This document shows positions 11,034 to 48,991 of a stretch of 49,089 bases of DNA, one piece after another (the first letter of the stretch is position 1; each line of letters starts with the position of its first letter). The stretch covers positions 1-49,089 of the IMG/VR virus record IMGVR_UViG_3300047403_000186; one strand, written 5' to 3'. The notes under the pieces were generated by a model, which ran no database searches, was not told the DNA's origin, and was given only the letters and a program-made list of their open reading frames with translations. Made by a program: the position numbers and the translations under genes. The stretch comes from a virus. Its lineage: Duplodnaviria; Caudoviricetes.

Positions 11034-11203
11034 CGCCCTACCGAGCCAGCGCCTACCGTGGCGGCGAGCTCGTCGAGCACTTGTTTTCTCGCCTGGCCGA
11101 CGCTCGGGCCTGGGTCAACGGCAGCGACCAGACTAGGCCCTGGAGAATCCAGGCCAGGCGCGGCGGGAGGTGGCAGACCGTGCATCAGTCGTGGAGGAGG
11201 TAG
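11030..11203 (+). CDS. 57-aa hypothetical protein (missed by the track)
   Basis: ATGA overlap; MTPYRASAYRGGELVEHLFSRLADARAW. Confidence 0.55.
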   Translation: MTPYRASAYRGGELVEHLFSRLADARAWVNGSDQTRPWRIQARRGGRWQTVHQSWRR

Positions 11204-11205
11204 CC

Positions 11206-11768
<563 letters not shown>

Positions 11769-11772
<4 letters not shown>

Positions 11773-12386
11773 GCGACGACCTAACCGCCCGCCGCGAGGC
11801 CGAGGCGCTCCGCGTCTGGCGAGCCGATGGCAAGGCACCCTCGGGCATCTGCCCGCACTGCGGCTCGCCCATCTCCGTCGTGCAGCGCGGCGGCTGGTTC
11901 CGCGCCCGCTGCTCGCATCGGCACTGCGGGGCAAGCGGATCGAAGATGCGCAAGCTGACGCGCGCCGTCGAGACGTTCTGCCGCCCGGACGCATACGTCC
12001 TGCGGCACATGGGCGTGGTGACGATGCTGGAGCAGGAGCGCGACGAGCTCCGCGCCGAGGTCGAGCGCCTGCGCGCCGAGGTTGAGGGACAAGGCACCGG
12101 CTTGACCGCCCTGCAACTAATCCTTGGCCCGACGCCCAACGGGCTGATCGCCGCCGTCAAGGCGCTAGCTGACCACGCCAAGCATGGAACTTGTTTGCAA
12201 GTTATCCCCGGCACCTTCATCGCCTGCGGCGAGGGTAAAAACTTTTGCACTAGGGCGTGCTGGCTCGAAAGCCTGCTTCGCGAGGCGCACCGGGAGCTTT
12301 CGACCATCGAGGCAATTACCGTTAGTCCGTCGGATACGGATGGTTTGATCGATTTGGTCCGGCGGATCGGGGAGGCGATCAATTGA
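11769..12386 (+). CDS. Lar-like zinc-ribbon plus coiled-coil protein
   Basis: CPHCG...RCSHRHCGASG, then ERDELRAEVERLRAEVE. Confidence 0.55.
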
Positions 12387-12628
12387 GTTCCAGTGACTTC
12401 TGCATCCGCTGTGACCGAGAACTGAGTGCGTATTGCGAACACTGCTTTGATGCGATGCGTGACGCCGTCAAAGCCGAGGTCGAGCGGCTGCGGCGCGACC
12501 GCGACAGCTACGCCAACTCTAACTTTGAGGGACAGCTGTCTGAGGCCCGCCGCGAGCTCGACCGGCTGCGGGCCGAGCTGGCAAGGAGGCATGCTTATCC
12601 GGTTACCACCCAAGGAGCGTGTAAGTGA
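12383..12628 (+). CDS. Zn-finger/coiled-coil protein whose C-terminus is supplied by the inserted cassette
   Basis: CIRC...CEHC; the last 12 aa are encoded inside the element starting at 12590. Confidence 0.6.
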   Translation: MSSSDFCIRCDRELSAYCEHCFDAMRDAVKAEVERLRRDRDSYANSNFEGQLSEARRELDRLRAELARRHAYPVTTQGACK

Positions 12629-13356
12629 GCTATAGCGCGCTCAAGCCATTCTGGCGTTACTACGGCGGCAAGTGGCGGGCCGCTCTGTCATATGCCGCGC
12701 CGGTTCATGACGTAATCGTTGAGCCGTTCGCTGGCGCGGCCGGTTACGCGCTGCACTATCCCGAGCGCGATGTTGTGCTCGTCGACTGCTACCCGGTCGT
12801 CGCGGGCATCTGGCGTTGGTTGATCGGCGCGACCTCTGATGAAGTTCGCGCGATCCCGCTCACCGACGATGTGAGCTTGCTGCCCGACTGGGTTCCGACC
12901 GGAGCTCGCGATCTCATCGGTTTCTCGATGAACGCCGCAGTCGCGTCGCCGAGGCGCGCGCTGTCCGCTGGGTGCTTGCGCCTGCGCGCACAGGGTCGTC
13001 AGTTCTACGGCTGGTCCGAGGCGATGCGCGAACGTGTCGCGCAGCAAGTCTGCAAGATCAAGCACTGGCAGGTGATCGAGGGCGATTACACCGCTGCCCC
13101 GAACGTTGAGGCCACTTGGTTCATCGACCCGCCGTATCAGACTCAGGGCCACCATTACGTCCACACCCTCTCACCAGAGCAGTACGCGGCCCTGGCAACG
13201 TGGTGCCAGTCGCGGCGCGGGCAGGTGATCGTGTGCGAGGGCGAGGGCGCGGACTGGCTCCCTTTTCGCTCGCACGGAGCGTTCAAGGCAGGCCCGATCT
13301 CCAAACGCTTCCGGGAGGTCGTGTGGCCGTGATTGGGAGACAACCGGATAAGCATG
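12590..13356 (+). mobile_element. Non-autonomous IS1595-family (ISSod11-like ends) mobile cassette carrying a methyltransferase
   Basis: Terminal IRs CATGCTTATCCGGTTACCACCCAA / TTGGGAGACAACCGGATAAGCATG (21/24 match, outer 15 bp perfect). Flanking 8-bp direct repeat CAAGGAGG at 12582-12589 and 13357-13364. Confidence 0.82.
12625..13332 (+). CDS. DNA adenine methyltransferase (D12/Dam class)
   Basis: YYGGKW, EPFAGAAGY (SAM motif I), FIDPPY (motif IV). Confidence 0.88.
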   Translation: MSYSALKPFWRYYGGKWRAALSYAAPVHDVIVEPFAGAAGYALHYPERDVVLVDCYPVVAGIWRWLIGATSDEVRAIPLTDDVSLLPDWVPTGARDLIGFSMNAAVASPRRALSAGCLRLRAQGRQFYGWSEAMRERVAQQVCKIKHWQVIEGDYTAAPNVEATWFIDPPYQTQGHHYVHTLSPEQYAALATWCQSRRGQVIVCEGEGADWLPFRSHGAFKAGPISKRFREVVWP

Positions 13357-13372
13357 CAAGGAGGGGCGAGCC

Positions 13373-13714
13373 GTGAGCGACGAGTGCCGCGACTGCTACG
13401 CCGACCCCTGTCGGTGCGCCGAGTACGCCGCCGCCCGCGCCGGGGAGCGCGCCGCCGCGTCTGCCGTCTGCGCGTCGATGATCGACGCGATGCCGTGTCG
13501 GCCGTCTCCGTGGCTTGTCTGGCCGTTTCACGACGCACCGCCTGTGCTGCGCGCCTTGTCGCAGAACGGCGGCGACGAGGATTGGATCCTTGTGCTCTCG
13601 CCCGGCGCCGACGATCCGTGGTGGGCGCACGAGGGCGGGCCGTTTGGATGTTGCCGCGTCGAGCGCCACGAGCTGCCGTGTGGACGCACGGTGCTGATCG
13701 GGTGTCACTCGTGA
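13373..13714 (+). CDS. Hypothetical protein
   Basis: AAGGAGG upstream of the GTG; SQNGGDEDW motif. Confidence 0.65.
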   Translation: MSDECRDCYADPCRCAEYAAARAGERAAASAVCASMIDAMPCRPSPWLVWPFHDAPPVLRALSQNGGDEDWILVLSPGADDPWWAHEGGPFGCCRVERHELPCGRTVLIGCHS

Positions 13715-30493: not shown

Positions 30494-32536
30494 CTACTCG
30501 TCACGCTCGCGCAGGGCGCGCTCCACCGCGGCGTCTGCCTTCTGCCGGCGAGCACGCGGAGACTCCTCGCTGAAGTGCTCGCCAACGATCACGTAGACGG
30601 GCCGAGACTCCCGCGGGCGCTCGTTGTTGCCCTGCGTCGAGGTCGTGCCGCGCTGGTCGCGCTGTCCTGCGGCGGCACCGCCACCGGACGACGCGCTGGC
30701 ACCGCCCGCGGAGGCGCCGCTGCCGGCTCCTCCCGATCCGCCGAGCGCTTTGGCGCCTGCTGCCATGGCGGCGGACGCAGCAGCAAACTTGAGCGCAGCG
30801 GCCACGTGCATACCCGCTCGCGGATCGCCGAGAGCTCCGAAGCCGATCGCATAGGCTGCGTGCTTGAGAGACTCGGTCGCCATCTGGATGGCGTTTGCCT
30901 TGAGGGCGTCGGCAATGAATTTCTTGATCGCCTGGCCGGCAGACATTGAGCCGGTGATCCATGCGTCCATCGCGGACCCGATCGCTCCGCTCAGCATGGA
31001 AAACGCATCGGCGTATAGGCTGAACTCCTCGGGCTTTCCGAACGTCTGCGACAGGAACGACTCCCGGTCGGCAACAGTCTGCGCCCGCTTCATCTCCTCA
31101 AGTTGCTTGCGATGCTCCTCGATGGCTGCCAGCTGCGCGTTGAGCGCCTCTCCGATCTGCGACGGATCGATCGCTGCTGCCATGTCGGACACGCCGGCCT
31201 TGACGCTGTCCGTCGTCTCTGCAATCCAGCCCTCGAGGTTGTAGAGCGCCACGTCCTTGGCGTCGACAACGCCCTGCGCCCACTCCTTGAGCTGTGAAAT
31301 CTGCCGCTCTGTGTCTTGCTTGATCTTCTCGTTGTCGGCGCCGCCAGATCGCGACGTCTTGGTGGCCGATTTCTTCGCCTTCTCCTGGGCGTCGCTGACG
31401 GTCTTGAGCATGCGCTGCATCGTCGAGGAAAACGCAGCCTCGTCGATCGGCTTGGACTCCTTGCCGCTGTCTTGCCAAAAGTCGAAGGATTGATATCCGA
31501 GCTGCGGAGCCTCGCCGGCAAACGGATTGAAGTTTGGATCTGCAAAGGGGCTAGGGGCGAAGACCTTTGCAGTACGACGACGGGCGATTGCTTTGTCGAG
31601 CTGGTCCATGAACTCTGGCACCTGGCGCCAGAAATCCATGTTTTGAGGTGTTGCTCCCCTGATAATCTGGTCAGCGTACTGCTCTGCCAGCTCTTGGTTG
31701 TTTGTTGGTTGCCCTGCGAACGCGGTGTCTAGTTTGCTCTTGTTCGGCGTTGTGAACGCACTGATGACCTTGCCGGGCAGATTGAGCAGCTGTGCGGTGA
31801 TGCCAACGGCGTCGGCGATGGCTTTGATCAGCGGCGCCATTGCTGCCACCAACTCGCCGATCGACTTTTTCACGCTTGCAAAGCTGTCGGACACGCTGAC
31901 GCCCATGGCGCTCATCTGCTCGCCAGTGGACATCGTCGCAACGCTGACGCCGGTTGCCTTGCTGGCCAGCGCGTCCATCAGGTTGTTGAACTTCTCGATG
32001 TCCGTCTTGCCCTCTTTTACGGCAAGCCCAAAATCGTCGAGCCCTTCTGCCTTGCCCTTGATCAGCGCCTGCGTGACCTTGTCGGTCACCTGCGCCTGGT
32101 CGTGGCCCGCGCGCGTCAGGGCAATCATTGCCATCTGCGCCGTTTCCATCTGCTCTTGGGTCAGCTTGAAGACGCCGTTTTGCGTCTTGGCTGCAAACGT
32201 CAGCAGCTCGTGCTCGGTGCGCAAGCCAAGAGACGCCTTCTTTAGCTCCTCGAGGTTGACCGCGCCCGCGGCTGAGCGCAGACGCAGATCTTCGCTGTAG
32301 TCCTGAAACGAATCAGCCGCGAAAGCCACCGTCCTGGCGACCAGCTCGAGCGCCTGATTTGCTTTTCCCAGGGACGAGATCCACCCGTCATACGAGGCGT
32401 TGCGACTCTCGAGCGACGCAATGTGCTGTTGCTGCAGCCGGCGCTCCTCGTCGGAGAGCTCGCGCAGCTTTGACTTCATGTCCGATGTGTCGGCCTTGAA
32501 GTACGTGATCACCTTCGACGCAAAATCAATCGCCAT
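30494..32536 (-). CDS. Tape measure protein
   Basis: 680-aa helical Ala-rich protein after the chaperone pair; LDDFGL motif. Confidence 0.85.
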   Translation of the reverse strand: MAIDFASKVITYFKADTSDMKSKLRELSDEERRLQQQHIASLESRNASYDGWISSLGKANQALELVARTVAFAADSFQDYSEDLRLRSAAGAVNLEELKKASLGLRTEHELLTFAAKTQNGVFKLTQEQMETAQMAMIALTRAGHDQAQVTDKVTQALIKGKAEGLDDFGLAVKEGKTDIEKFNNLMDALASKATGVSVATMSTGEQMSAMGVSVSDSFASVKKSIGELVAAMAPLIKAIADAVGITAQLLNLPGKVISAFTTPNKSKLDTAFAGQPTNNQELAEQYADQIIRGATPQNMDFWRQVPEFMDQLDKAIARRRTAKVFAPSPFADPNFNPFAGEAPQLGYQSFDFWQDSGKESKPIDEAAFSSTMQRMLKTVSDAQEKAKKSATKTSRSGGADNEKIKQDTERQISQLKEWAQGVVDAKDVALYNLEGWIAETTDSVKAGVSDMAAAIDPSQIGEALNAQLAAIEEHRKQLEEMKRAQTVADRESFLSQTFGKPEEFSLYADAFSMLSGAIGSAMDAWITGSMSAGQAIKKFIADALKANAIQMATESLKHAAYAIGFGALGDPRAGMHVAAALKFAAASAAMAAGAKALGGSGGAGSGASAGGASASSGGGAAAGQRDQRGTTSTQGNNERPRESRPVYVIVGEHFSEESPRARRQKADAAVERALRERDE

Positions 32537-32957
32537 GACGCATCCCCCCGCCCTTGTCTGCGGGCGTCATCAGCCAGCCCTCGACCTCGTTGTACGCAGC
32601 ATCGAGGACCAGGACGGAGTCCAGCAGCTCGTCGGTAGCTGCCGGGTGAAGCAACGCCAGGGCGCCGTTACGCCAATGAGCGCGTGCCACGGCTGCCTCC
32701 ATCACGTCTGGCAGGTTGCAGGTGTACCCAGCGCAGGCGGACAACGGAGGACCGCTGTAGCCGTGGCTTCCACCAGGAGGCTGCCAGATCGTCAGGTGTA
32801 CGCGATCGGTGCGCGGTTCGTAGCCGCATCCGAGCGCCTGGCGTTGTAGTTGCGTCGTGGTGGACATACAGCGGTCACAGTCGTCGATTGCCAGCACACC
32901 GCGCCGGCTATGCTCCCTCCACCACGGCAGGGCTCGCAGCCCCTCTAGAACAAAGGG
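32526..32957 (-). CDS. Tail assembly chaperone, -1 frameshift extension (GT-like)
   Basis: Open -1 frame entered at C CCT TTG (32957-32951). Confidence 0.65.
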   Translation of the reverse strand, partial: PFVLEGLRALPWWREHSRRGVLAIDDCDRCMSTTTQLQRQALGCGYEPRTDRVHLTIWQPPGGSHGYSGPPLSACAGYTCNLPDVMEAAVARAHWRNGALALLHPAATDELLDSVLVLDAAYNEVEGWLMTPADKGGGMRHGD

Positions 32958-33445
32958 CCGACACCCCGCAATCGCGCGAACACGTCCGAGCCAATCTCTC
33001 CCACGATGCGCGGATCGATCTCGTCGAGTTGCGTCACCAGCGATGCCGGTGCCATGGTCCAGCCGTCCCACGTCGGATCAGGCTCGCGGCCGAATCGGGG
33101 CCAGCCGACCACCTCCTTGATCGCCAGTCGGAAAAGCAGCGCGTGCAGCGCCACCTGACCAATGTGGCGCGGGCTGTCGACAGGCAAGATCGCGCGGTCC
33201 GTCAGCGAGCGCCACACGTTGCGATCGACCTGCTGGCATACAAACTTGGTAGGCATCTGTCCCTCGATCAGCAGGGATGACCAGCTGCCCGTTTCCTTTG
33301 CCGCTCGCAGCGTCGCCAGGTACTGCTCGAGCTCGGCGCGCTGCTCGTCGGTTGCGTCGACGCCGAGTCGCTGCGGCTGCCGGAATGCCGGATCGCCGCT
33401 GAAAAACAGATCGTAATCGCGTGCCTGGCTTGGCGGCCTGATCAT
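32945..33445 (-). CDS. Tail assembly chaperone (G-like)
   Basis: Between tail tube and tape measure; ends GPLF at a slippery site. Confidence 0.7.
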   Translation of the reverse strand: MIRPPSQARDYDLFFSGDPAFRQPQRLGVDATDEQRAELEQYLATLRAAKETGSWSSLLIEGQMPTKFVCQQVDRNVWRSLTDRAILPVDSPRHIGQVALHALLFRLAIKEVVGWPRFGREPDPTWDGWTMAPASLVTQLDEIDPRIVGEIGSDVFARLRGVGPLF

Positions 33446-34665
33446 CCGAGTCCCATCCTGAACGCAGAGAGCGTGAGATCGTTGGTAGTGGTGCCGGACG
33501 TGTATGCCATGCCTTCGCACGTCAGGCGGTTGAGGTTCTGATCGATTTTCTGCAGCGCGACGTTGCTGATACAGACCTTTGGCAAGTAGATCGCGATCCG
33601 CGAGCCGGCCGCCGTGCTCGACGTGTACAGCAGGTGCTTGTTGGCCGTGCCCGTGCCGTAGCCAGGCAGCACCGGCGTGGTGGTGTTCGCGTCGGCATCC
33701 TCCGTCCAGCTGACCTTGATCTTGTCGACGGTGCGCCGACACCCGACCACGTCCTGGTACTGGTTGACGCCACCCGGACCCTTGAGCGTCTCCATGCCCA
33801 TGGTGTAGTCGATCGTGAAGTTGCGGAACGTGCGCGTGGCGCGCGTCGCGGTGCCGACGTCGTTGACGAACAGCGATCCGGCAGCGACCGCGCCGGGATT
33901 GTGCGTCTCAGTGGCGACCGTGCTCGGAAACGTCGCGGTGCTGTAGCGCCACCAGGCAACGGCCCACGTCACCTCGATCGCGGGAAGCTCTCCTGGGTTG
34001 AGTCCAGAGATCGACACCGCGGTGGGGAAGCACCCATGCAGCTCGTAGCTCAGATTGGCAGTCTGAAGCAGGAAGCGAAGCGACTGCACCGTGGTGCTCG
34101 TCGGCAGCTCGTTGGGGTAGATCGTGGCTGCCGAAAAGCACACGTCACCGTTGTTAGGCGCCGCGCCGAGTGCCGTCAGCAGGTTGAGCGTCGTGGTCGC
34201 GTGCGTCGACACCACGAACGCCTGTCCGCCGCCGCGTCCGTCCGCCAGCGACCCGGCAAAGCCGATGCTGCCTGGCGAAAAGGTGCCAGACGCTGCCGTG
34301 GTCGGCGCCGTCGCCGTACCGGCCGCGAACGTCGTGCCCGACGACGCCGAAGCCGCCACGTTGCCGAACACATAGCCCAGCAGCGTCTCGAGGCCGGTCA
34401 GCGTGACCGTGCTGGACGTGGTCGATCCGTGGCCAGATAGATACAGCTTGGTCTTGAATGACCCACCCATGGTCGACAGGATCCACGCGCTGCCGTCGTT
34501 GCGATACTGCACCACGCGCTCGGAGTCGACCTTGCTGTGCACCAGGCCGGACGCGTCCACCGGCGCGGTGATCGGGAGTCGGTACGTCGTAAACGTCGTT
34601 GTGTCGACGCCGAATGACGCCTCTGTCTCGTACGTAATAGATCCGAGAGCGCCGGGATTCGCCAT
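33442..34665 (-). CDS. Major tail tube protein
   Basis: N-terminal E.SFG motif, Thr/Gly-rich, canonical position. Confidence 0.75.
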   Translation of the reverse strand: MANPGALGSITYETEASFGVDTTTFTTYRLPITAPVDASGLVHSKVDSERVVQYRNDGSAWILSTMGGSFKTKLYLSGHGSTTSSTVTLTGLETLLGYVFGNVAASASSGTTFAAGTATAPTTAASGTFSPGSIGFAGSLADGRGGGQAFVVSTHATTTLNLLTALGAAPNNGDVCFSAATIYPNELPTSTTVQSLRFLLQTANLSYELHGCFPTAVSISGLNPGELPAIEVTWAVAWWRYSTATFPSTVATETHNPGAVAAGSLFVNDVGTATRATRTFRNFTIDYTMGMETLKGPGGVNQYQDVVGCRRTVDKIKVSWTEDADANTTTPVLPGYGTGTANKHLLYTSSTAAGSRIAIYLPKVCISNVALQKIDQNLNRLTCEGMAYTSGTTTNDLTLSAFRMGLG

Positions 34666-34706
34666 ATCGCGACAATCGCGATAGGCACTCTCCGTCGAGA
34701 GCGTTA
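34666..34706 (-). promoter_or_regulatory. Late-promoter motif copy
   Basis: TAACGCTCTC-N19-GATTGT-N6-ATG. Confidence 0.7.
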
Positions 34707-34716
34707 CGTTATCTGA

Positions 34717-35202
34717 TTACACGATTGCGCGCTGGTATTCGTACTGTGCGCGTACCACCAAGAAATCAACTTTCTGTCCTGCGTCGCGTGTCTTGGTGGC
34801 TCCGAGCGGCGTGCAATCATGTGCTCCGCTGAAGTTTGCGCGGCCATACATGCCGATCGCAGCGTTGATCAGCTTCCAGTCGGCGTTGATTGCATCGTCG
34901 CGATCCATCGCGTTGCGCGGACCGGCGCGATGCCCCTGCGGGTACGCCACCACCAGCTCGAGCTGCAGGCGCACGCGCTCCTCGGTGATGCTCGACACCT
35001 CGGGTGGTGCGTCGTCGCCGACCTCGCGCACCTGAAAGCGGCGCCAAGCGGCGGCCGGATTTTGATCAGCCCACGACTGGAAATCGGCGCCGTACTCGTT
35101 GCGCGCTGACCGGAAGCGATCCGACGACAGCAGGGACGGCACGAGCGCCTCGATCAGCGCGATCACGCGGTCTCGGATCCCCTCCTGCGTCGCCAGGGCC
35201 AC
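34717..35202 (-). CDS. Tail terminator-like protein
   Basis: IRDRVIALIEAL N-terminal helix; precedes the tail tube. Confidence 0.55.
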   Translation of the reverse strand: MALATQEGIRDRVIALIEALVPSLLSSDRFRSARNEYGADFQSWADQNPAAAWRRFQVREVGDDAPPEVSSITEERVRLQLELVVAYPQGHRAGPRNAMDRDDAINADWKLINAAIGMYGRANFSGAHDCTPLGATKTRDAGQKVDFLVVRAQYEYQRAIV

Positions 35203-35204
35203 GG

Positions 35205-36146
35205 CTATCGCCTCGACAGCCCCTGCGCGACCACAGGCGTGGCGGCGCCGTCCTCGTCTCGTACGGGCACGCGCGCCACGATCCGTAGCAGGCTGTCTAG
35301 CCGCTCGCGGTATCGGGCGGCTGCGTCGCGCACGCGCTGGCTGTCGGTGACGCCTGCCAGGTATCGCGCCCACTCGCCCTGCTCGATCGCCTTGAGCCTC
35401 ACCAGCTCGTCCATCACCTCGGACTCGGCAATCGCGGACGACGACAGGTCGAGCTGGTGCAGGTCGATACGGATTTCGCGATACGCAGCGCTGATCAGCC
35501 GCCGCCCCTGGTCGGCGCGGTGGTCCGTCGGGAGAATATCGAGCCAGCCGGGCAGAAGCTCCTCGACGTCGAGCGCAGTAATGCCGTGGCGATCCACGTA
35601 GCGCGACAGGTTGAAGTAGCTGTCTGCAACGTACGTGACGCCGCCGACCACGTACACCCAGCGCACGCGATAGTGCGGGTTGGCGCCGGCCTCATCGCCG
35701 ATCAGGTTGTCCTCGTCGGCGACCCAGGCGGCATTCACCGCAGCCTGGATCCGGGTGGTCTGCACCGTGTCGCCGGTCGTGTACGAACCGTGCAGCGGGT
35801 GCCTAGCGGTGACGTACGCACCCGAGCTCAGGTCGGAAGCCTCAAACCACTCTTTCCGGCCGTCGGCCGCCGTCACCAGGTACGTGCGGCCAGTCGCCAT
35901 GCCGGTGGTGGCTGTGACATTCAGCCGGCGCGGATCGTCGCTGCCGTATCCGCTGTAGGCGTCAACGGTGGTGTTTGGGCTCGTCTCGATCGACGGAGCG
36001 GCAACCGCTGCCTCCGTGATCTGATCGTCGCCGACGTCCCAGGGCCACACCTCGACAGACGTGACCGACGACGGGCGACCCTCTGGGCAGTCGAAATACA
36101 GCGACTGACCAGTCACGTCGAACGCGATTTGCTGGATCGACCGCAT
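35205..36146 (-). CDS. Head-tail adaptor-like protein
   Basis: Position; helical C-terminal domain. Confidence 0.5.
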   Translation of the reverse strand: MRSIQQIAFDVTGQSLYFDCPEGRPSSVTSVEVWPWDVGDDQITEAAVAAPSIETSPNTTVDAYSGYGSDDPRRLNVTATTGMATGRTYLVTAADGRKEWFEASDLSSGAYVTARHPLHGSYTTGDTVQTTRIQAAVNAAWVADEDNLIGDEAGANPHYRVRWVYVVGGVTYVADSYFNLSRYVDRHGITALDVEELLPGWLDILPTDHRADQGRRLISAAYREIRIDLHQLDLSSSAIAESEVMDELVRLKAIEQGEWARYLAGVTDSQRVRDAAARYRERLDSLLRIVARVPVRDEDGAATPVVAQGLSRR

Positions 36147-36721
36147 CAGCGCCACGCCCCCAGCCAGGCGACCGACCGATCGCACGCAGCCTCAAAGCCA
36201 CGCACCCGAGCGCGCACCCGATCGCGCGGCTCGAGCTCGGCAAAGGGATACCTTGATCCGCCAAGATCAGTGTAGTTGCTCCGCTGCGAGCACGCCATGG
36301 TCAGCCCCGCCAGATCCATCGAGAGCGAAAAGCACACCCCACCGAGACCCTCCTGGCGCCCCTTGGCGAAGATCTGCATCACGCGCCGCTCCATCTTGCA
36401 GGTCAGGCACGCGCCGCAGTGCTGGCACTTGCTGATCGGCATCTGCCGCACCGGCGCAATGCGACGCGTGACACCGTCGCCGGGCTGGTCGACGTGGCGC
36501 GGCCGGGCAGCCTTGGCCCGGCGCGGCTTGCGAAGACGCTTGCGCGCCTCGAGCCGCTCAAGCCCGCGCGCGTTGGCCGTCTCGGCGTCGCGCAGCGTGC
36601 CGCCTGCCAGCTTGCTCGCCTCGACCTCGCGTGCCAGCGTGCGCTCCTTCACCCACCGCGCATGCTCGGGGTGGGACGGAGCCGACGCTGCCGCGGAGGG
36701 CGTGACGAGCTTGACGCTCAC
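36146..36721 (-). CDS. Hypothetical protein with Cys cluster
   Basis: CQHCGACLTC; coupled on both sides. Confidence 0.55.
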   Translation of the reverse strand: MSVKLVTPSAAASAPSHPEHARWVKERTLAREVEASKLAGGTLRDAETANARGLERLEARKRLRKPRRAKAARPRHVDQPGDGVTRRIAPVRQMPISKCQHCGACLTCKMERRVMQIFAKGRQEGLGGVCFSLSMDLAGLTMACSQRSNYTDLGGSRYPFAELEPRDRVRARVRGFEAACDRSVAWLGAWR

Positions 36722-37350
36722 TTGGTGACCCGTGGCGTGGGCGTGGGCTGGTCGAGCTTGTCGGCGACCTTCTCGAGCAGCTTGGCCATGTGCGCGTTGG
36801 TGGCCTGCTGCTCTGCGAGCTTCTTCCGCTCGATATCCACCAGCGACTCCTGCCGGCTGCTGCGCGCCGCGGCACGCTCAGCGGCGACCGCACGGCGGCT
36901 CTTGATCAGCGCCTCGACATGCGTGCAGCCGTTGGTGTACGTGCGAATGCCGCGCGCGTCGACCGTGAACGTCTTGGGGTCAGACGCACAAGGGGACAGG
37001 CTGATCCCCGCCTCCTCAAACTCGGCCGCGAGCGCCGGAATCTGCGCTAGCAGCCCATGGCGCACCGGGCAGCGTCCGTGCTCGACAAAGCCGACCACGG
37101 TGCCGTCAGCGTTGCGCTGCTTGTGCAGCTGCTGCCGCTTCGCTTCGACGACGGCAGCGTGCTTGCTCGGCGCGCCAGGCGCTACCAGCTGGATGTCGGT
37201 GACGTTGCCCTGGAGGTCAACGAACTTGTCCGACACGCCAGACACCCACTTCTCAGAGCGGCGCTCGCCAGCGTACACGACGGTGCGCGGCTTCTCGGGG
37301 TTGAGCCGCTTTCCGGCGTCGTGTGCAATCGACTTGCTGAGTGATCCCAT
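36718..37350 (-). CDS. Hypothetical protein after the capsid gene
   Basis: GAGGAG RBS before ATG 37350. Confidence 0.65.
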   Translation of the reverse strand: MGSLSKSIAHDAGKRLNPEKPRTVVYAGERRSEKWVSGVSDKFVDLQGNVTDIQLVAPGAPSKHAAVVEAKRQQLHKQRNADGTVVGFVEHGRCPVRHGLLAQIPALAAEFEEAGISLSPCASDPKTFTVDARGIRTYTNGCTHVEALIKSRRAVAAERAAARSSRQESLVDIERKKLAEQQATNAHMAKLLEKVADKLDQPTPTPRVTK

Positions 37351-37361
37351 TTGTCTCCTCG

Positions 37362-37414
37362 TGGGGGCCGGTGGCATTGCACCACCGCGCACGGCTTCAG
37401 ACCGCAGTACCCCC
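37362..37414 (-). ncRNA. tRNA-like mini-structure
   Basis: GGGGGT...GGTGG-TGCAATG-CCACC-GGCCCCC-A between the capsid gene and the next gene. Confidence 0.4.
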
Positions 37415-37423
37415 GGCCGACGA

Positions 37424-38368
37424 TCAGGCGTCGGTGACGAGCTTCTGGCCCATCGTGTTGTTGGTGATGCCGCAGCCCCAGCGCATCGTCATGACGAACT
37501 CGGTGGTCCGCTTCGACGCGTTGCGCTCGGTCTCGACCCGGAACTCACGGAGCGAGCCCTGGCCGATCGCCGCCGTCGCACGCTGCGACTCGATGTCGCC
37601 GCGGACGAAGATTGCCGAGACCACGTCGGCGCCGGTGTTCGCGGTATCCGTCAGCGACTGACGGTACAGCGGCACGCCCTTGTACGAGAGCACGTAGCCC
37701 TCGGCGTTGCGGCCAGAGTCGCCGCTCGGCGACACTGCCATCATCCGGTCCGCCGCCCCGGCGTACACCGCGATATTGCTCGACTGCGCCTGCAGGTCGT
37801 CCTGCAGATCGCGGATCGCCTGGTTGTCGAAGATGCCAACCAGCTCGCCCTGCACGCCGCGCTCGGCGAGATCGTAGATCGCATCGTCGATGTCGATCAC
37901 GCGGCAGTTGGTGCCCGAGGTGCCCGAGCTGTTGGTGAACGACGCGAACAGCGCGCACGCGTCGTCGTTGGCAGCCGCCATCAGGATGGACGCGCCGTCC
38001 GGAACCAGGAACGCCAGGACGTCCGCGGCCGACGCCGCCGACTCGATCACCTGGTCGGTGACCTCGCGCAGCAGTCCGTACTCGGAGATCGAGAACGTGT
38101 TGTCCAGCGTCTCGAGCTCGGTGGCCGAGAGGTCGGACGCCTCGGTGGCGTTGTACTCGGTGTCAACCGCCGAGTCCGGCGTGGGCTGGTCGCCCTGGTC
38201 GGACACCCAGCGGGGGACGCTGACGGTGGTCGATCCGTTCGTCGGATTCCAGCGCGCAAAGAACTGCGACGGGTTCTGGTAGTTGGCAGCGTACGACTGG
38301 ATGAATGGAGCGATCCACTCGCCGTACACGAGCTCGGTCAGGGTGGTCAGGGTGGTCTCGTTGGCCAT
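37424..38368 (-). CDS. Major capsid protein (HK97 fold)
   Basis: 314 aa after the scaffold; TVSVPR, YKGVPLY, VETERNA..RTTEFV...WG.G. Confidence 0.85.
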   Translation of the reverse strand: MANETTLTTLTELVYGEWIAPFIQSYAANYQNPSQFFARWNPTNGSTTVSVPRWVSDQGDQPTPDSAVDTEYNATEASDLSATELETLDNTFSISEYGLLREVTDQVIESAASAADVLAFLVPDGASILMAAANDDACALFASFTNSSGTSGTNCRVIDIDDAIYDLAERGVQGELVGIFDNQAIRDLQDDLQAQSSNIAVYAGAADRMMAVSPSGDSGRNAEGYVLSYKGVPLYRQSLTDTANTGADVVSAIFVRGDIESQRATAAIGQGSLREFRVETERNASKRTTEFVMTMRWGCGITNNTMGQKLVTDA

Positions 38369-38373
38369 GGGAG

Positions 38374-39105
38374 TTACCTCTGGCGCCTGCTCTCAGGAGT
38401 CAGCCGGAACGTCCGCAGGTCGCGCATCACAGCGTCGGTGAACATGCTCATCGCCTTCGTCTGACCGTGCTTTGCGACCAGCGTGTCAAAGTCGTGCGCG
38501 CTGATCTCGCGGGGGCGAGACAGAGCGATCGACTCGCTGTCGCGAAGGTTGGTCGGCGCGGCGGCGCCCATGTCCGAGCTGTTTGGCTTCTGCTTCTGCT
38601 CCGGTGCCTGAGTCTGCGCCGGTTTGATGTTGTCTGCGATTGCGGTTGCGGGAGGTGGTGTCTTCGCGAGCCCCATGTCTGCCAGGTACGCGTCCACCTC
38701 GCTGCCGAACGACTCCAGCGGCGCAGTCGCCAGCGCGGCGCGCATGCGTCGATCCTGTGCCTCCGTCAATCCATGCTTTGCGGCCCGCGCGGAAAAGACT
38801 CGCTCGCGCTCCAGGGCCGATTGCATTTCAGTATGGGAGACACCGGACGGCGCAGACGCGGGGGCGGACTGCGGCGAGGTCGGCGGGTCAGCTGCGGCGG
38901 CCTGCTTGGCCAGCACACCCGTCCGTCGGAGATTTGCGAAAATCTCGTTTCTCTGAGACGTGAGCTTCTCGTCGAACACGCCCGTCAGGTGGGTCGTGAT
39001 TTGCGCGACGAGCGCGGCCACGTCAAGAGTTGGCGCCTGCGCTGGCGCCTCGGCGGGTGGAGTCGGTGCCGCGCCGCCACCAGGCGACGAGCCCTCCTCG
39101 GACAT
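38374..39105 (-). CDS. Capsid scaffolding protein
   Basis: Pro/Ala-rich helical protein immediately upstream of the capsid gene. Confidence 0.7.
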   Translation of the reverse strand: MSEEGSSPGGGAAPTPPAEAPAQAPTLDVAALVAQITTHLTGVFDEKLTSQRNEIFANLRRTGVLAKQAAAADPPTSPQSAPASAPSGVSHTEMQSALERERVFSARAAKHGLTEAQDRRMRAALATAPLESFGSEVDAYLADMGLAKTPPPATAIADNIKPAQTQAPEQKQKPNSSDMGAAAPTNLRDSESIALSRPREISAHDFDTLVAKHGQTKAMSMFTDAVMRDLRTFRLTPESRRQR

Positions 39106-39192
39106 CAGTGCTTTGCTTGGACGTTGAAACATTCTTTCTCTCTCGCCCGGAGCCGGCGACGCAGCCCAATACGAGGGCCAATCCGTGCGACG

Positions 39193-39228
39193 AGAGTCAA
39201 TGTTCAGACTATGAGTTAGAGATAATTA
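39193..39228 (-). promoter_or_regulatory. Degenerate late-promoter motif with structured leader
   Basis: TAATTATCTC-N20-GACTCT; two hairpins before the scaffold start. Confidence 0.4.
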
Positions 39229-39813
39229 CGTGTCCGAAAACGTCGACGCGATCTGACTGTAGCCGTGCCCCGTTGGCAGGCTGTAATTGACTATCACCGT
39301 GTGCCCGGCGGCCCGCACCTTGCGACAGAACCCGATATCCTCTCCGCACGTCACGCCGCAGCCGTCCTCGCTGTCAACCTGGACAAACCACGGGCGCGGG
39401 AGGTCGCGCAGCTTGATCAGGTCGATCAGCATGTATCCGGTGCCGACTTCACCCGGGTAGCACTCGCCAGGCTGCGACGGGTGGCAATTCACCCGCGAGC
39501 CATTGCGCGTCACCACCGCGGCTCCCACCACCGCGGCGTCATGGCTCGACATCACCTGCCACATGTGCGCAAGTCCGCCCTCTGGCACCATGGGGAACGT
39601 GTCGGCGTCCATGGTCAGCAGCAGCCGGGCGCCGGCCGCGTAGGCCTCGCGGACCAGCACATTGCGAGCGCGCGGGATGCCGCTGTTGTCGCACCACAGA
39701 GGCAGCGGGCGCCAGCCGAGCTCGACGCACGTCAGCGCGTCCTGCTGCCACGCGTACGCCGTTTGAATCGCCACCTGCTGCCGGTAGGCCGGGATCGCGA
39801 GCGCGCAGATCAT
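39226..39813 (-). CDS. GT-A fold glycosyltransferase
   Basis: IPAY, RARN, MDAD, GTGYMLI, GEDIGFC. Confidence 0.85.
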   Translation of the reverse strand: MICALAIPAYRQQVAIQTAYAWQQDALTCVELGWRPLPLWCDNSGIPRARNVLVREAYAAGARLLLTMDADTFPMVPEGGLAHMWQVMSSHDAAVVGAAVVTRNGSRVNCHPSQPGECYPGEVGTGYMLIDLIKLRDLPRPWFVQVDSEDGCGVTCGEDIGFCRKVRAAGHTVIVNYSLPTGHGYSQIASTFSDT

Positions 39814-40556
39814 CGCTTCCGTCTCCTCAATGGCTCGATGCCGCGCTTGCGGCACCAGTCCTCATTCCACAGGTGTGCATGCGCGTCAGGGTGCGAAAAC
39901 GCGCGCCCACGCTCAAAGACGCGCGACCTGTCGGCGACACGACGAGCGGCAGTGATCGGGTTGGCTTGCGCACGCGCCGAGAAACCGTCGGGGAACATGC
40001 CGGCCGAGCACGTCGGCTCATCGTGGATATGCCAGCCGACGTAGAACTGGACCTGCATGGAGAAGTCCCAGTCCCCCGAATACCGCAGCGATTCGTCGTG
40101 CTCGCCGACCTCTCGCCACACGTCGACCCGGTACACGTTGGTGCAGCCGGTGAACACCGAGTCCGAATAAATGTGTCGCTGCCAGTCGGCGGGTATCGCC
40201 CAAACCGATACCGCTACCGGATCGAAGTGCGGCGAGCTCGAGCAGCGCGCCGCGCCGCTGGACACGACCTCGATCTGCCGCGCCTTGGCGTCTGAATAGA
40301 ACAGATCGCCAACGTCCAGCCGGCACGCGATATCGCTGTCAGCCAGCAGGCGGATCCCGGCGTTGAGCGCACCCGAACAGCCGCGGTTTTCCGTCAGGTG
40401 CACGACGTCGCACGGGAGGGCATCTAGGCCCGCGTCGTGGCAGCCGTCGTCGACGACGATCACCCGATCCATGCCGGGGACCGCCAGGGCTGACTCGACC
40501 GTGGACAGCACGCGAGCGAACGGCTCGCGGTAGCACGGCACAACCGTGACGATCAC
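39810..40556 (-). CDS. Family 2 glycosyltransferase
   Basis: VVPCY, VIVVDDG, NRG.SGALNAG, LD.GD, DESL..SGDWDF. Confidence 0.9.
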   Translation of the reverse strand: MIVTVVPCYREPFARVLSTVESALAVPGMDRVIVVDDGCHDAGLDALPCDVVHLTENRGCSGALNAGIRLLADSDIACRLDVGDLFYSDAKARQIEVVSSGAARCSSSPHFDPVAVSVWAIPADWQRHIYSDSVFTGCTNVYRVDVWREVGEHDESLRYSGDWDFSMQVQFYVGWHIHDEPTCSAGMFPDGFSARAQANPITAARRVADRSRVFERGRAFSHPDAHAHLWNEDWCRKRGIEPLRRRKR

Positions 40557-42034
40557 TGTATCGGCTCGCCCCGGTTGGCCTGAAACGGAGTCTCGCCGTC
40601 TCGCTGCACGATGTCCTCGGTGCTCGCGCCCATCGAGCCAGAGAGCGCCTGCATGCCACGCAGAAACACGATCCGCCGTGTCTCGATCTCAATATTCTCC
40701 CGCAGGTACTCCTCGGCCTGGTCGTCCGTCATATCGGGATTACGCTTCGTGATCTCCTCGATCGTCGTGGTCAGCCCCAGCTGGCGCCGCTTCTCGAAGA
40801 CCTGATCCAGCTCGGACTCGGTCAGCGGCTGCTGCACCTCGCCGAAATCGATCCCCCAGCCGTCGACGTTGAACGCATACGCCGGCAGGTCCGCCGCGTT
40901 GACCGCGGACTGGATCTTGGCCAGCTCGCGCTCGACGCGACGCATGACCGGGATCCGCTTCTTGCGTAGCTCACGCAGAGGGATCCGCCGCAGGTGAATC
41001 TCGGCGCCACTGGACGCGTCGCGCTGGTGCAGAACCGCCGGCGGCAGTCCGTGATTTGCAGCCGCGCGCTCGAGCACGTGATCCGCGTTGTCGCGAAACA
41101 TGACCAGATCCATGCCGCGATCCACGACCTGCACCGTCACGCCCTCGGGCAGCAGCACCTCGCGCTCGGTGTCTGACGACTGGCCCACCGTAGCCGCCGA
41201 CGTGTCGCCGCTCAGGTACGCCTGCTTGTTGGCGCTCTTGCTCTCCTTGAGCAGCAGCACGTTCTGGAACCAGATTGACTCGTGCGCTGCCACCAGGTCC
41301 GACGCTGGCGACTGCGACATCAGCCGGCCCTTAGCCGTCGGTGGTACGAGTGACGCCAGCACGCCAGGAAGTCGTCCGAACTCCAGCGGGCGCCACGTCG
41401 ACGGAATCACCTGGCACTTACCGTCGAGCTGGAACGTCTCGTCAGCGGCAATCACCCGGTAGCACGGCGTCAGCGCGGTCGCGTTGCGCGGCGTCTGGTT
41501 GATCATCACGGCGACCAGCTGACCAGGATCGGCCGGGTGGGCAATCGCCCAGAACTGAGCCGGCGAGATCACGTCAAACACCGGCTCACTCGTATCGCGC
41601 CGCACGCGGTACTGGATCCAGCACTCGGCATGGCGCCCCAGCATGGCGTCGACCTCGCGCATGGCGCCGTCGATATTCGCCAGATCGTTGAGCGCCTGGT
41701 AGGTGTCGTTGCCGTCGGACACGTATCGCTTCGCCGGCTCGCTGTAGACCGTCGCGATCTCGACCGTCACCCGGCGAAGTACGTTGTTCCACTTTGCCCA
41801 GGCGACCAGATCCGCCCGTAGCTTGCGAGTAAGCGGATCCTCAAAGGCGCGGTAGATCAGCTGCTTGATGTACTCGTCGCCGCCGCCGTCATAGTACGCG
41901 TCGCGCTTCTTTGCCTCGTTGATTCTCTCGATCTCGTGCGGATCGCGCACGTAGTGATCGCGCAGGTGATCGCCGACAAAGCGCCACGACACAGGGCCGC
42001 CGCCGACGGTGTCCAAGATCTCGCGCAGCCCCAT
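40553..42034 (-). CDS. Portal protein (SPP1-like)
   Basis: After terL; YYDG, N.LRRV....AT.Y, ASSG, IDFGE. Confidence 0.85.
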   Translation of the reverse strand: MGLREILDTVGGGPVSWRFVGDHLRDHYVRDPHEIERINEAKKRDAYYDGGGDEYIKQLIYRAFEDPLTRKLRADLVAWAKWNNVLRRVTVEIATVYSEPAKRYVSDGNDTYQALNDLANIDGAMREVDAMLGRHAECWIQYRVRRDTSEPVFDVISPAQFWAIAHPADPGQLVAVMINQTPRNATALTPCYRVIAADETFQLDGKCQVIPSTWRPLEFGRLPGVLASLVPPTAKGRLMSQSPASDLVAAHESIWFQNVLLLKESKSANKQAYLSGDTSAATVGQSSDTEREVLLPEGVTVQVVDRGMDLVMFRDNADHVLERAAANHGLPPAVLHQRDASSGAEIHLRRIPLRELRKKRIPVMRRVERELAKIQSAVNAADLPAYAFNVDGWGIDFGEVQQPLTESELDQVFEKRRQLGLTTTIEEITKRNPDMTDDQAEEYLRENIEIETRRIVFLRGMQALSGSMGASTEDIVQRDGETPFQANRGEPIQ

Positions 42035-43722
42035 TAGCCGAGTCCTTTCTGGATGTCGTCGCGCAGGCCGAGCGCCATCTCTTTCTCCCACGGCCACAGC
42101 CCGTATCCGAGCGCAGCCGGAAGATCCGACTTGTCGTGACGCACGTCCTTTTCCTCGTACTCGGCGCGGCCCTTTTCGTCACGCTCCATGCTCTCAAGCG
42201 CTGCCACCAGCAGAGGCGCCGTCGGCGTGCCGCGATCGTCGCACTCGACAAACAGCCGGCGGCGCCCCATGGCATCGCAGAACAGTCCGCACAGCATGCC
42301 GATCCGCGACTCCTTCTTGATCTGGCCGACCCCCACGGAGTCGTTTTTCTTGTACTGCGCTGGTCGCACGTCGAGCCCGATCCGCTTCCAGATCCGCAGC
42401 ATGTCCTGGTCGGGCTTATCCTCCGACGCGCCCACCGGCTGCGCGCGAACGTGCAGGATCTCAGCGTCGGGGCGCACGTTGATCCCTCGAGCACGCGACC
42501 ACTCGAGCACGCGCACAGCATGCTGTTCGATCGTCTCGTGTAGCGTGAAGATTTCTCCGCGTACCCACCAGAACACCTGCGAGCCAGAACCGGGCAGGGT
42601 GTACGCGTCCAGAAACACCGTCGCCGCCTTGGCCTGCCCCGGATCGTGTCCCGCCAGCGCCGCATGACGCGGGTTGCCCGTTTTCTTTGAGAGCACATAC
42701 CCCGTGATGCGCTTGGCTCCGACGGGCAGCGGGCGCAGGTTTTCGCGCCGGTCCCACGTGTGGTACAGGCGCGATTCCGGCGCGACATCCTCGGCCAGAT
42801 AGCGGCGCCGAAATTCGCGATCCGTCAGCCCGCTGCGTCGTTTGGTGTCCAGAAATCCAGCGGCGACGAACGGACTGTCAGCGACGAGCAGGCGAGCCAG
42901 CCCCCACTGTCCGCCAGCCAGCACCTGATCGCGCACGGTGCGAAACTCTGGATCGTCCTTCGCCGTCGCGGTCGCCAGCTGCTTGTACCTGCCGCCGCGC
43001 GCGGCGCGGCCGCGCGACTCGATATCGGCGTGCACGTCGATCTGATCCTGAAACTCATCACGACCGGCCCAGCTCCAGTTGAACCCCTGGATCGGCGAGC
43101 CCGCCGCCGCCGACGTGCGCTGCGTGTGACGAAACCTGATTCGGCTGCCGTCGCACAGCTCAAAACCCTCGAAGTCATCGCGCGCAACGTAACGACACCA
43201 CGACGAGCGCCACAGCTTTAGGAACTCGTGCTTGACCAGGCCAAGACGCGCCAGCGTCGGCGCCGTCTGTCCGCCCTCGCGATGCTCGCCCAGGTTTTCG
43301 ATCCAGCGTCGGTGGTGCCACATCGCCAGCGCCGTCGTCTTGCCGCCGCCCTCGGAGCCGATCACGAGCTGGCCAAGCGGTACGCTGTCAGCGTGCATGA
43401 CGATCGGAGCCTGTGCCTCGCTCGCCAGCCAGACCCTCGGATCCCGGCTCGGCCCCACAATCGTTGGCGTGGTCGCCTTGGTGTCGACGATTCCGCCCCA
43501 GCGGTGCTCGTGCACGACCGAGGCGCGCCGACCAGACTCGAGCTCGATCGGGCCGTTGTCGTCCACGCGGATCACGCGCAGCACCACGCCGACGTCCACA
43601 AAGCGGTCGAACCCCTCGACGCGCTCGGAGACCTTGCGCATGATCGCGCGTCGTCGATAGGCCGGGTTAGTTAGCAGACCGACCCCCAGAGCGAGCGCGA
43701 GGACGACAAGCCAAGATCTCAA
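42034..43722 (-). CDS. terL: Terminase large subunit
   Basis: GSEGGGKT Walker A, AGRDE Walker B, GHDPG and SDLPAALGYG nuclease motifs. Confidence 0.9.
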   Translation of the reverse strand: MRSWLVVLALALGVGLLTNPAYRRRAIMRKVSERVEGFDRFVDVGVVLRVIRVDDNGPIELESGRRASVVHEHRWGGIVDTKATTPTIVGPSRDPRVWLASEAQAPIVMHADSVPLGQLVIGSEGGGKTTALAMWHHRRWIENLGEHREGGQTAPTLARLGLVKHEFLKLWRSSWCRYVARDDFEGFELCDGSRIRFRHTQRTSAAAGSPIQGFNWSWAGRDEFQDQIDVHADIESRGRAARGGRYKQLATATAKDDPEFRTVRDQVLAGGQWGLARLLVADSPFVAAGFLDTKRRSGLTDREFRRRYLAEDVAPESRLYHTWDRRENLRPLPVGAKRITGYVLSKKTGNPRHAALAGHDPGQAKAATVFLDAYTLPGSGSQVFWWVRGEIFTLHETIEQHAVRVLEWSRARGINVRPDAEILHVRAQPVGASEDKPDQDMLRIWKRIGLDVRPAQYKKNDSVGVGQIKKESRIGMLCGLFCDAMGRRRLFVECDDRGTPTAPLLVAALESMERDEKGRAEYEEKDVRHDKSDLPAALGYGLWPWEKEMALGLRDDIQKGLG

Positions 43723-48148: not shown

Positions 48149-48991
48149 TTACGCGGCCAGGTCCGGGCGGCGACGCGCGATCCGCGCAAACTTCGGCAGG
48201 CCGGCGTCGGTGAACCCGTCGTGCCGCACCTCGACCACCTCGCCGACCGTCAGCGCGCGGTTAGGCGAGCGCGAAACGATGATCGACCGCGCAGCACTAG
48301 TCCACCACAGCTGGGCGGCGCGCGAATCGAAACCCACCACGACGCAGTCGATCTCGGACGTGGGCTTGATCTTTCGCTTGCTGCCGCGCGCCCCGAGCTG
48401 GGCGTCCAGGTTGACCGCCACGAGCCCCTCGCCGCCCTCGCGCTCTACCCAGTCCGCCCAGGCGACGTCGAACCGCGCCGCAGGGAGCTGCTCGACGATC
48501 TGAACGCGCCGCCAGCCACGGGGGACGCGCGAGCAGTAGCGGCCCGTGCCGGCGTCGTGCGCGTCACCCTGGGCGTCGTCCGTCCAGGGCTGATCGCGCC
48601 CGCCGAGCTCGAGCGCAACCTGCGCCCGCATCAGCGCGTCACGCCGCACGCGGTAGGACTCGCGCGACACGTCGCGCCCGCCGACGCGGATCGCGTCGAA
48701 CGCATGCGCGATAGCGTAGCCGCGCGCCTCGACGGTGCGCCGGGCGCTCTCCGTCCACAGCTCGAGCTCGCACGCCAGCACCGAGTCGGGCGCCCACGTC
48801 ACGCCGCGATACGACGCGAGCACGCCGGGACCGAGCACCTCGCCCGCCCGCGTGATCGCGTTGGCGATCCTGCCGCGGCGGTCGGTCGTGACGGTGGCGT
48901 AGATCCCGTCGATCTTGCGCTGGACCACCCACGACTGCCCGAGCCGCCGAGCTGCCGCGAGATCGAGCCGTGCGCCTGCGCCTGCGTACAT
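48149..48991 (-). CDS. Minimal ATP-dependent DNA ligase
   Basis: QRKIDG (motif I), ACEL, AFD, EGLV, KIKP, OB fold VVEV....PKF....R.D. Confidence 0.85.
   Translation of the reverse strand: MYAGAGARLDLAAARRLGQSWVVQRKIDGIYATVTTDRRGRIANAITRAGEVLGPGVLASYRGVTWAPDSVLACELELWTESARRTVEARGYAIAHAFDAIRVGGRDVSRESYRVRRDALMRAQVALELGGRDQPWTDDAQGDAHDAGTGRYCSRVPRGWRRVQIVEQLPAARFDVAWADWVEREGGEGLVAVNLDAQLGARGSKRKIKPTSEIDCVVVGFDSRAAQLWWTSAARSIIVSRSPNRALTVGEVVEVRHDGFTDAGLPKFARIARRRPDLAA

Follow-up and report, generated by a model that had tools for sequence, protein, structure and literature searches.

A transposase-less, IS1595-ended cassette carrying a Dam-like methyltransferase gene in a phage operon and its relatives among viral contigs

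The gain of single accessory genes by phages is usually ascribed to recombination at chance homologies. The stretch of DNA analyzed here (the window, 49,089 nucleotides, the IMG/VR record IMGVR_UViG_3300047403_000186) raises the question of whether one such gene, a methylase gene enclosed by inverted repeats, arrived by a different route. The gene lies in a same-strand gene run, between RecT-like/exonuclease genes and an integrase. Our analyses suggested, with a probability of about 0.8, that it belongs to a transposase-less cassette with IS1595 ends, which was likely pasted into this early-gene operon by a related transposase of another phage or of the host and whose product is a predicted protective methyltransferase.

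The features of the locus are collected in Table 1. Re-measurement agreed with the first-pass annotation on the 767-bp unit, its 24-bp terminal repeats (21 of 24 positions identical, among them all of the outer 15) and the exact 8-bp duplication, CAAGGAGG, which is present at 12582-12589 and 13357-13364 and goes no further. The contents were likewise as described, namely a repeat, AAGGAG, the methylase gene and the second repeat, with the methylase stop codon (13330-13332) adjoining the latter. A perfect 12- or 15-bp inverted repeat with a flanking duplication was found at one place only in the window (in two registers). Taken from this site alone, the unit could also be read with a 6-bp duplication and one extra base per end; the 8-bp register was preferred because 72 of 81 sister elements carry exactly 8 bp. 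No IS1595 transposase domain was detected in the unit or in the record, which is rated 85% complete, as expected from the earlier claim that the cassette is transposase-less, and a transposase would therefore have to act in trans. Since the unit has no zinc ribbon plus DDE_Tnp_IS1595 transposase of its own, it is a derivative and not an autonomous IS. A composite transposon was ruled out, as the end motif occurs just twice in the 49-kb record, once at each end of the unit, and a MITE was ruled out by the 235-aa ORF that fills it. The observed structure (unit, repeats, duplication and single gene) is confirmed; with a passenger gene between IS ends and without a transposase, the unit has the makeup of a mobile insertion cassette, and its 8-bp duplication is that of the IS1595 family. 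It is a well-formed IS1595-derived mobile insertion cassette with an orphan Dam-like methyltransferase.

Table 1. Features of the cassette and of its two flanking ORFs (positions in the window)
Feature	Position	Strand	Remark
Upstream ORF, 81 aa (TTG start) or 57 aa (ATG start at 12455)	12383..12628	+	last 12 codons cassette-derived
Target duplication, left copy, 8 bp	12582..12589	+	in final codons of upstream ORF
Whole cassette, 767 bp, without transposase	12590..13356	+	sequence and domain search
Left terminal inverted repeat, 24 bp	12590..12613	+	
AAGGAG, Shine-Dalgarno-like	12612..12617	+	7 nt 5' of methylase start; overlaps inner repeat end
Three-frame stops at -3, +1 and +8 of methylase start	12622..12635	+	
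Methylase gene, orphan Dam-like amino-methyltransferase, 235 aa, FAGAAG ... DPPY	12625..13332	+	GTG start
Right terminal inverted repeat, 24 bp	13333..13356	-	directly 3' of methylase stop
Target duplication, right copy	13357..13364	+	Shine-Dalgarno 8 nt 5' of start at 13373
Downstream ORF, 113 aa	13373..13714	+	C-terminal part: distant homologues in other viral contigs

In the filled state the upstream frame terminates at GTGA on the methylase start, as had been read from the sequence. In silico removal of the unit plus one copy of the duplicated repeat returned this frame to ...ELARRGEP*, whose GTGA overlaps the start at 13373, and so reproduced the restoration proposed earlier; the upstream ORF, however, has no homologue (a search matched nothing but itself), and the C-terminus of the empty state is therefore a reconstruction and not an observed allele. 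Related phages with an empty site, for which the first-pass annotation had proposed a search, were not found: the empty-site junction motif had no exact match in metagenome contigs, no joint skipping the unit was present in contigs from two runs, in which rare alleles would not be visible, and the viral collection held no close phage relative by the downstream ORF or the RecT-like protein. The downstream ORF retrieved three distant loci without synteny, and relatives of the RecT-like protein among viral contigs were 31-38% identical, one 87% relative being known as a protein.

Some other parts of the window were also noted. A second methyltransferase-like gene (1804-2250, - strand; PHROG 111, 9e-20) has no such ends. 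An Ala/Tyr-rich low-complexity ORF lies at 11170-11772 (+), and contigs of run X1 break at 11535-11722. The record ends with an ATP-dependent DNA ligase-like gene (48149-48991, -). Five large proteins tested from the likely head/tail region (30494-43641, -) had no PHROG match; the phage seems far from described groups.

The methylase matched PHROG 56 (3e-9) and scored 18.9 bits against Pfam D12, under the 22-bit cut-off. A total of 4394 relatives were found. Across 82 sequences, F35, G37, D168 and Y171 were invariant, and the residues of the AdoMet-binding motif and of the DPPY motif that follows it were invariant or almost so. The predicted structure (pLDDT 95) best matched M.CbeI and E. coli Dam, with TM of about 0.64-0.65. 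Compared by sequence with solved structures, the protein on its own gave no match, and its profile gave weak Dam matches only. Both the motif order and the fold place the protein among the Dam-like amino-methyltransferases, the class with the AdoMet motif before DPPY, also called alpha-type. It shares this order and the fold with E. coli Dam, T4 Dam and M.CbeI, but is just 15-17% identical to them, shorter (235 aa) and below the Pfam cut-off. Orphan phage methylases are usually proposed to protect against restriction, and this enzyme would likely shield the phage DNA from host restriction. M.CbeI is described as an alpha-class N4-cytosine enzyme (PMC3425538). The top structural matches include both m4C and m6A enzymes, and N6-adenine or N4-cytosine methylation is predicted.

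The ends of the unit were present around only one of 160 methylase relatives (80 viral and 80 metagenome, of which 78 and 68, respectively, had at least 150 bp on both sides), a check that leaves out the DNA around the 11 closest relatives (65-77%). A methylase homologue at locus L008, 58% identical, sits in a cassette with the same ends and a different target. In a quick tree of 102 proteins, from which one row with an internal stop was left out, the two cassette-borne methylases were not sisters and had end-less relatives among their neighbours; a single origin of the two was not supported. Because 159 of the 160 relatives are without the ends, the methylase looks like a common free phage gene that may have been captured now and then, more than once. 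A cultured-phage collection gave three methylase matches and three weak transposase matches.

The same ends define a large family. Scanning 21 of 64 parts led to an estimate of about 370 viral stretches with the 15-nt end. Among the 150 loci listed there were 57 distinct facing end pairs, of which 42 had an exact 8-bp duplication, 4 had one mismatch and 11 had four or more; since these 11 share no duplication, rearrangements between neighbouring cassettes are suggested. Nested or clustered cassettes were seen at L119:1862-3377, L450:301-1335, L083 and L112. Combining the first scan, a second narrower scan and the methylase loci, and with a duplication required, we obtained 81 elements of 241-2563 bp in 76 clusters of viral contigs, with duplications of exactly 8 bp in 72, one mismatch in 7 and nine bp in 2. 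A transposase was lacking in 62 of the 76 clusters, and 14 hold an IS1595 transposase together with passengers, one of them broken. At L090:3001-4983, the catalytic part of the transposase is swapped for an HNH endonuclease and a helix-turn-helix, with the last transposase codons kept behind.

The attribution of the ends to the IS1595 family was borne out, since elements with the same ends encode such transposases: six intact ones were scanned and all exceeded the cut-offs of NCBIfam NF033547 and Pfam PF12762/PF12760. In the 14 transposase-carrying elements, the ends were 18-23/24 identical to those of the window. The catalytic pattern of the ISSod11 group, to which the elements may belong, is D-D-H..K, E-x3-R-x2-R, and D156, D237, H272, K279, E301, R305 and R308 were invariant in 12 aligned partner transposases. 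In bacterial genomes (7 of 64 parts scanned), 16 of 85 anchors had the end motif paired with a duplication, versus 57 of 92 in viral loci, and the elements were mostly bare 1-kb IS or 100-250-bp miniatures. The kind of element is already known, and it appears unusually common in phages. A palindromic box, presumably similar to the NrdR box, was present at nt 23-50 in 31 of 152 family ends versus 0.4% of random 28-mers (for example at L107:3001-3050 and L135:3944-3990); it often holds the cargo start codon and is absent from the window's unit.

Several sister cassettes recur. A 365-bp cargo cassette had 98% identical copies at two sites with different duplications, a 765-bp methylase cassette was found at two sites with 78% identity end to end, and a 241-bp miniature with these ends occupied four sites; the flanks were unrelated, no similarity being seen, though some of them are short. 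The window's 767-bp unit was seen at a single site; that it is itself mobile is suggested by these sisters.

A search for other cargo between the same ends had been suggested, and dozens of sister cassettes were indeed found in viral contigs. The cargo fits its container closely: of 55 cargo ORFs, 51 begin no more than 65 bp from the left end and 52 terminate no more than 70 bp from the right end; in 19, the stop codon lies in the repeat itself. DNA methyltransferase families were assigned in 10 of 61 cassettes, a count that omits L008, which was found via the methylase. As a flank control, 120 of 272 genes were searched, and a DNA methyltransferase was the best match of none and a generic methyltransferase that of two, so that methylases are enriched in cargo (p = 4e-4 by the cautious count). 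By a hand count among genes of at least 170 aa, the figures were 10 of 22 in cargo versus 2 of 27 in flanks (p = 0.003). Further cargo included two Mom-like genes, three PAPS-reductase-like genes, one TnpB and one DHH protein; the lone TnpB gene lies between the same ends at L144:1253-2408, with an exact 8-bp duplication. Because most cargo consists of small genes without family match, the family is not a methylase-only shuttle. The methyltransferase shuttle proposed earlier therefore describes an enriched class of cargo but not the family.

Non-disruptive insertion, first claimed for this unit, holds across the family. With genes called by an in-house gene caller, 9 of 64 rebuilt long-flank sites lay more than 30 nt inside a gene versus 46% of positions matched for GC content (p = 5e-8). 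In 37 of 40 cases, the largest inner gene was collinear with both flanks; family insertions avoid gene interiors and follow the operon direction. Targets are AT-rich (35% GC versus 59%). The window's target is GC-rich and atypical, the seventh lowest of 79 on the family target matrix, and given this low rank on an AT-rich matrix it fits the survival of a rare harmless insertion. That the duplicated target is itself a Shine-Dalgarno is true at the window site, but this concerns a minority in the family: the sequence was present on either strand in 8 of 80 targets versus 8.2% at random, which led us to reject Shine-Dalgarno targeting as a family rule, and on the sense strand in 5 of 55 versus 1.7 expected after GC matching (p = 0.03). 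The same ribosome-site octamer was duplicated by three different cassettes in different phages (L104, L145 and L389).

The stop-start coupling noted at the methylase was also found to be wider than described. The GTGA overlap is there, but it is not the only stop; all three frames stop at the cargo start, and coupling would therefore work in any frame. In de-duplicated cassette leaders, stops in at least two frames no more than 12 nt from the start occurred in 24 of 35, compared with 68 of 256 flank genes and with 19 at most in shuffled leaders under the same start rule. When scored starts were used, the counts were 21 of 39 leaders versus 67 of 256 flank genes. Comparison with AT-matched genes gave p = 0.01 or 0.09 depending on the start rule, and we regard three-frame stop clustering as a suggestive feature of the family. 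Antisense read-through was rejected both for the window cassette, where each of the six frames contains stops, and for cargo generally, with 14.8 antisense-stop codons per 1000 codons versus 11.4 in flank genes. Twelve phage-borne transposase genes (L097:1317-2363 and L428:3890-4903 among them) had 4 such codons in 4150, and cellular transposase copies had 4.5 per 1000; this depletion in phage transposases is not shared by cargo genes.

Autonomous partners with these ends were sought and found, in 14 viral clusters and in one chromosomal element. As the 14 viral clusters hold an IS1595 transposase and passengers, partners are often phage-borne. The 17 phage-borne transposases grouped with ISAcr1 and two further cellular copies in a single clade (100/100), and nine of the 17 made up an all-phage subclade (100/99). 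Wherever the upstream end could be located, for 16 phage-borne transposases, at least 600 bp of extra DNA was carried, and in 12 of 14 transposase-carrying elements the passengers lie upstream of the transposase, which is the position of the cargo start in the window unit. One of these elements has a methylase passenger 44% identical to a cassette cargo. The IS1595 domain was detected in 8 of 50 cassette-carrying viral records (7 of 25 near-complete ones) versus 0 of 49 controls (0 of 15), where the 50 records were tested out of 62 cassette clusters and some of the 12 domain matches may belong to other IS1595 groups. The remaining 18 of the 25 near-complete phages have no IS1595 transposase; most carriers, the window phage included, need an outside source because they have none of their own.

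On the cellular side, 23 of 401 Myxococcota genomes, a sample of one phylum chosen from a Myxococcales locus, encoded a related transposase, and in two elements the ends were 22/24 like those of the window. The first is a phage contig with the same sequence as viral locus L360; the second, 1.6 kb long and with passengers of its own, sits amid chromosomal genes. Passengers were also present in several other chromosomal copies, so phages are not the only setting in which such forms occur. No close RecT relative was found in the 401 genomes (7 matches, 31-41%), and one name from Kofleriaceae among the methylase matches was not enough to propose this family as host. When the two runs were compared with an autonomous element, scraps only were recovered, with one 147-bp piece over the transposase in X2. 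Both another phage and the host are possible sources of the transposase. The first reading had named a host transposase; one chromosomal partner agrees with it, but the phage-borne transposases and their presence in cassette-carrying records do not. Overall, that reading stood on structure and family, probably also on trans-mobilization, and was too narrow on the source of the transposase and on the cargo.

These data would fit the following course of events. A passenger-carrying IS1595 ancestor (left end, passengers, transposase, right end) may have lost or swapped its transposase and then been trimmed until an ORF filled it end to end, and a transposase supplied in trans may then have moved the trimmed cassette. 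Insertions sparing the operon would be those that survived. At the window site, the duplicated target would restore the ribosome site of the downstream gene, and the three-frame stops may let ribosomes that leave the interrupted ORF begin again on the cargo. The transposase-deletion step left no direct trace, because no transposase remnant was found in the window's cassette or in nearly any other.

The absence of such remnants, together with the intact ends and duplication and an ORF flush to the right repeat, also speaks against the possible but not probable alternative that the unit is a dead relic, in which a whole passenger-carrying IS1595 element inserted, the transposase was lost in place and the 767-bp form never moved, with the methylase kept, or drifting, as an ordinary phage gene. 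In-place deletion would directly yield such units from elements like the 16 with extra DNA, a broken intermediate exists (L090), and the single known site of the unit agrees with a relic; other transposase-less cassettes, on the other hand, recur at unrelated sites. We consider it doubtful that a transposase encoded by the host is specifically a shuttle of anti-restriction methyltransferases into phages. The methylase enrichment (10/61 versus 0-2/120, and likewise among the larger genes) is in its favor, the Mom-like and PAPS-reductase-like cargos extend the DNA-modification theme, most near-complete carriers have no transposase, and a chromosomal element with 22/24 matching ends exists. Nevertheless, most cassette genes have no family match, partners are common in phages and include the nine-member all-phage subclade, elements with 22/24 ends were found in 2 of 401 genomes of one phylum with one of them being a phage contig, and nearly all methylase relatives are without the ends. 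This rarity of the ends around relatives of the gene would also be expected if the repeats had arisen by chance or during assembly around an ordinary methylase gene of a phage, an explanation to which we give practically no weight and which was refuted by three observations. None of 30 Markov-shuffled windows contained a 12-bp inverted repeat with an 8-bp duplication, a large family is defined by the same ends, and the right junction is covered without any difference by a 314-bp contig from a second study (X2). In addition, one contig of run X1, possibly the source run, spans both junctions at a depth of about 104.

A single cassette of this kind is nothing unusual within a known type of element; it is the breadth of the family that matters, and its phage-wide spread and possible built-in coupling outweigh the single unit in significance. 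The unit and its sisters point to a defined route of gene gain that spares tightly packed operons, with 24-bp ends, a transposase class that is already known, a preference for AT-rich targets of 8 bp and leaders that would keep ribosomes moving. If this is true, part of the turnover of phage methylases and accessory genes would be transposon-driven and traceable by end motifs. A broader proposal, which we put forward only tentatively and think might well prove wrong, is that a phage-adapted IS1595 plug-in system captures single genes flush, supplies them with a ribosome site and multi-frame stops, inserts them into dense operons without polarity and, through the transposases of co-infecting phages, carries genes for DNA modification and other accessory functions between unrelated phages. 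Such a system would amount to integron-like gene trade without an integrase.

The cassettes can be compared with several known systems. Mobile insertion cassettes such as MIC231 of Bacillus cereus are described as derivatives of IS that lack a transposase and respond to the cognate one in trans (PMC3129680, PMC3281130), and IS ends, a passenger gene and a missing transposase are common to them and the window unit. The latter differs from MIC231 in its ends, which are of IS1595 and not IS231 type, in its phage carrier and in belonging to a family with dozens of unrelated single-gene cargos. Transporter IS (tIS) are reported for IS1595 and IS66 (TnCentral, 10.1101/2021.05.26.445724), and an 8-bp target duplication is given as a feature of the IS1595 family (PMC8101967). 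The nearest named element is ISAcr1 of Acidiphilium, which is absent from the IS1595 group table in supplementary table 6 of the latter source. Our elements share with these the 8-bp duplication, an end near-identical to that of ISAcr1, passengers inside the ends and partner transposases with a zinc ribbon and the IS1595 catalytic domain, 62% identical to that of ISAcr1. ISAcr1 is a bare 1-kb IS, whereas the phage partners all carry passengers and the window unit is transposase-less. No report of IS1595-ended cassettes in phages was found in the searched literature, outside which most subscription journals fall. For bacteria, methylase units that lack a transposase, are bounded by repeats and have 8-bp duplications have been published before: Furuta et al. 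(2010; PMC2853133) described restriction-modification genes, including orphan methylases, between inverted repeats in bacterial genomes, two cases having an 8-bp duplication and empty sites, and raised the possibility of a trans-acting transposase. For the long-duplication class of the same study, repeats are noted that span translation starts or stops, so that the target gene stays intact. The units in that account are bacterial and no transposase family is tied to them there, whereas those described here lie in phage operons and have an identified partner family.
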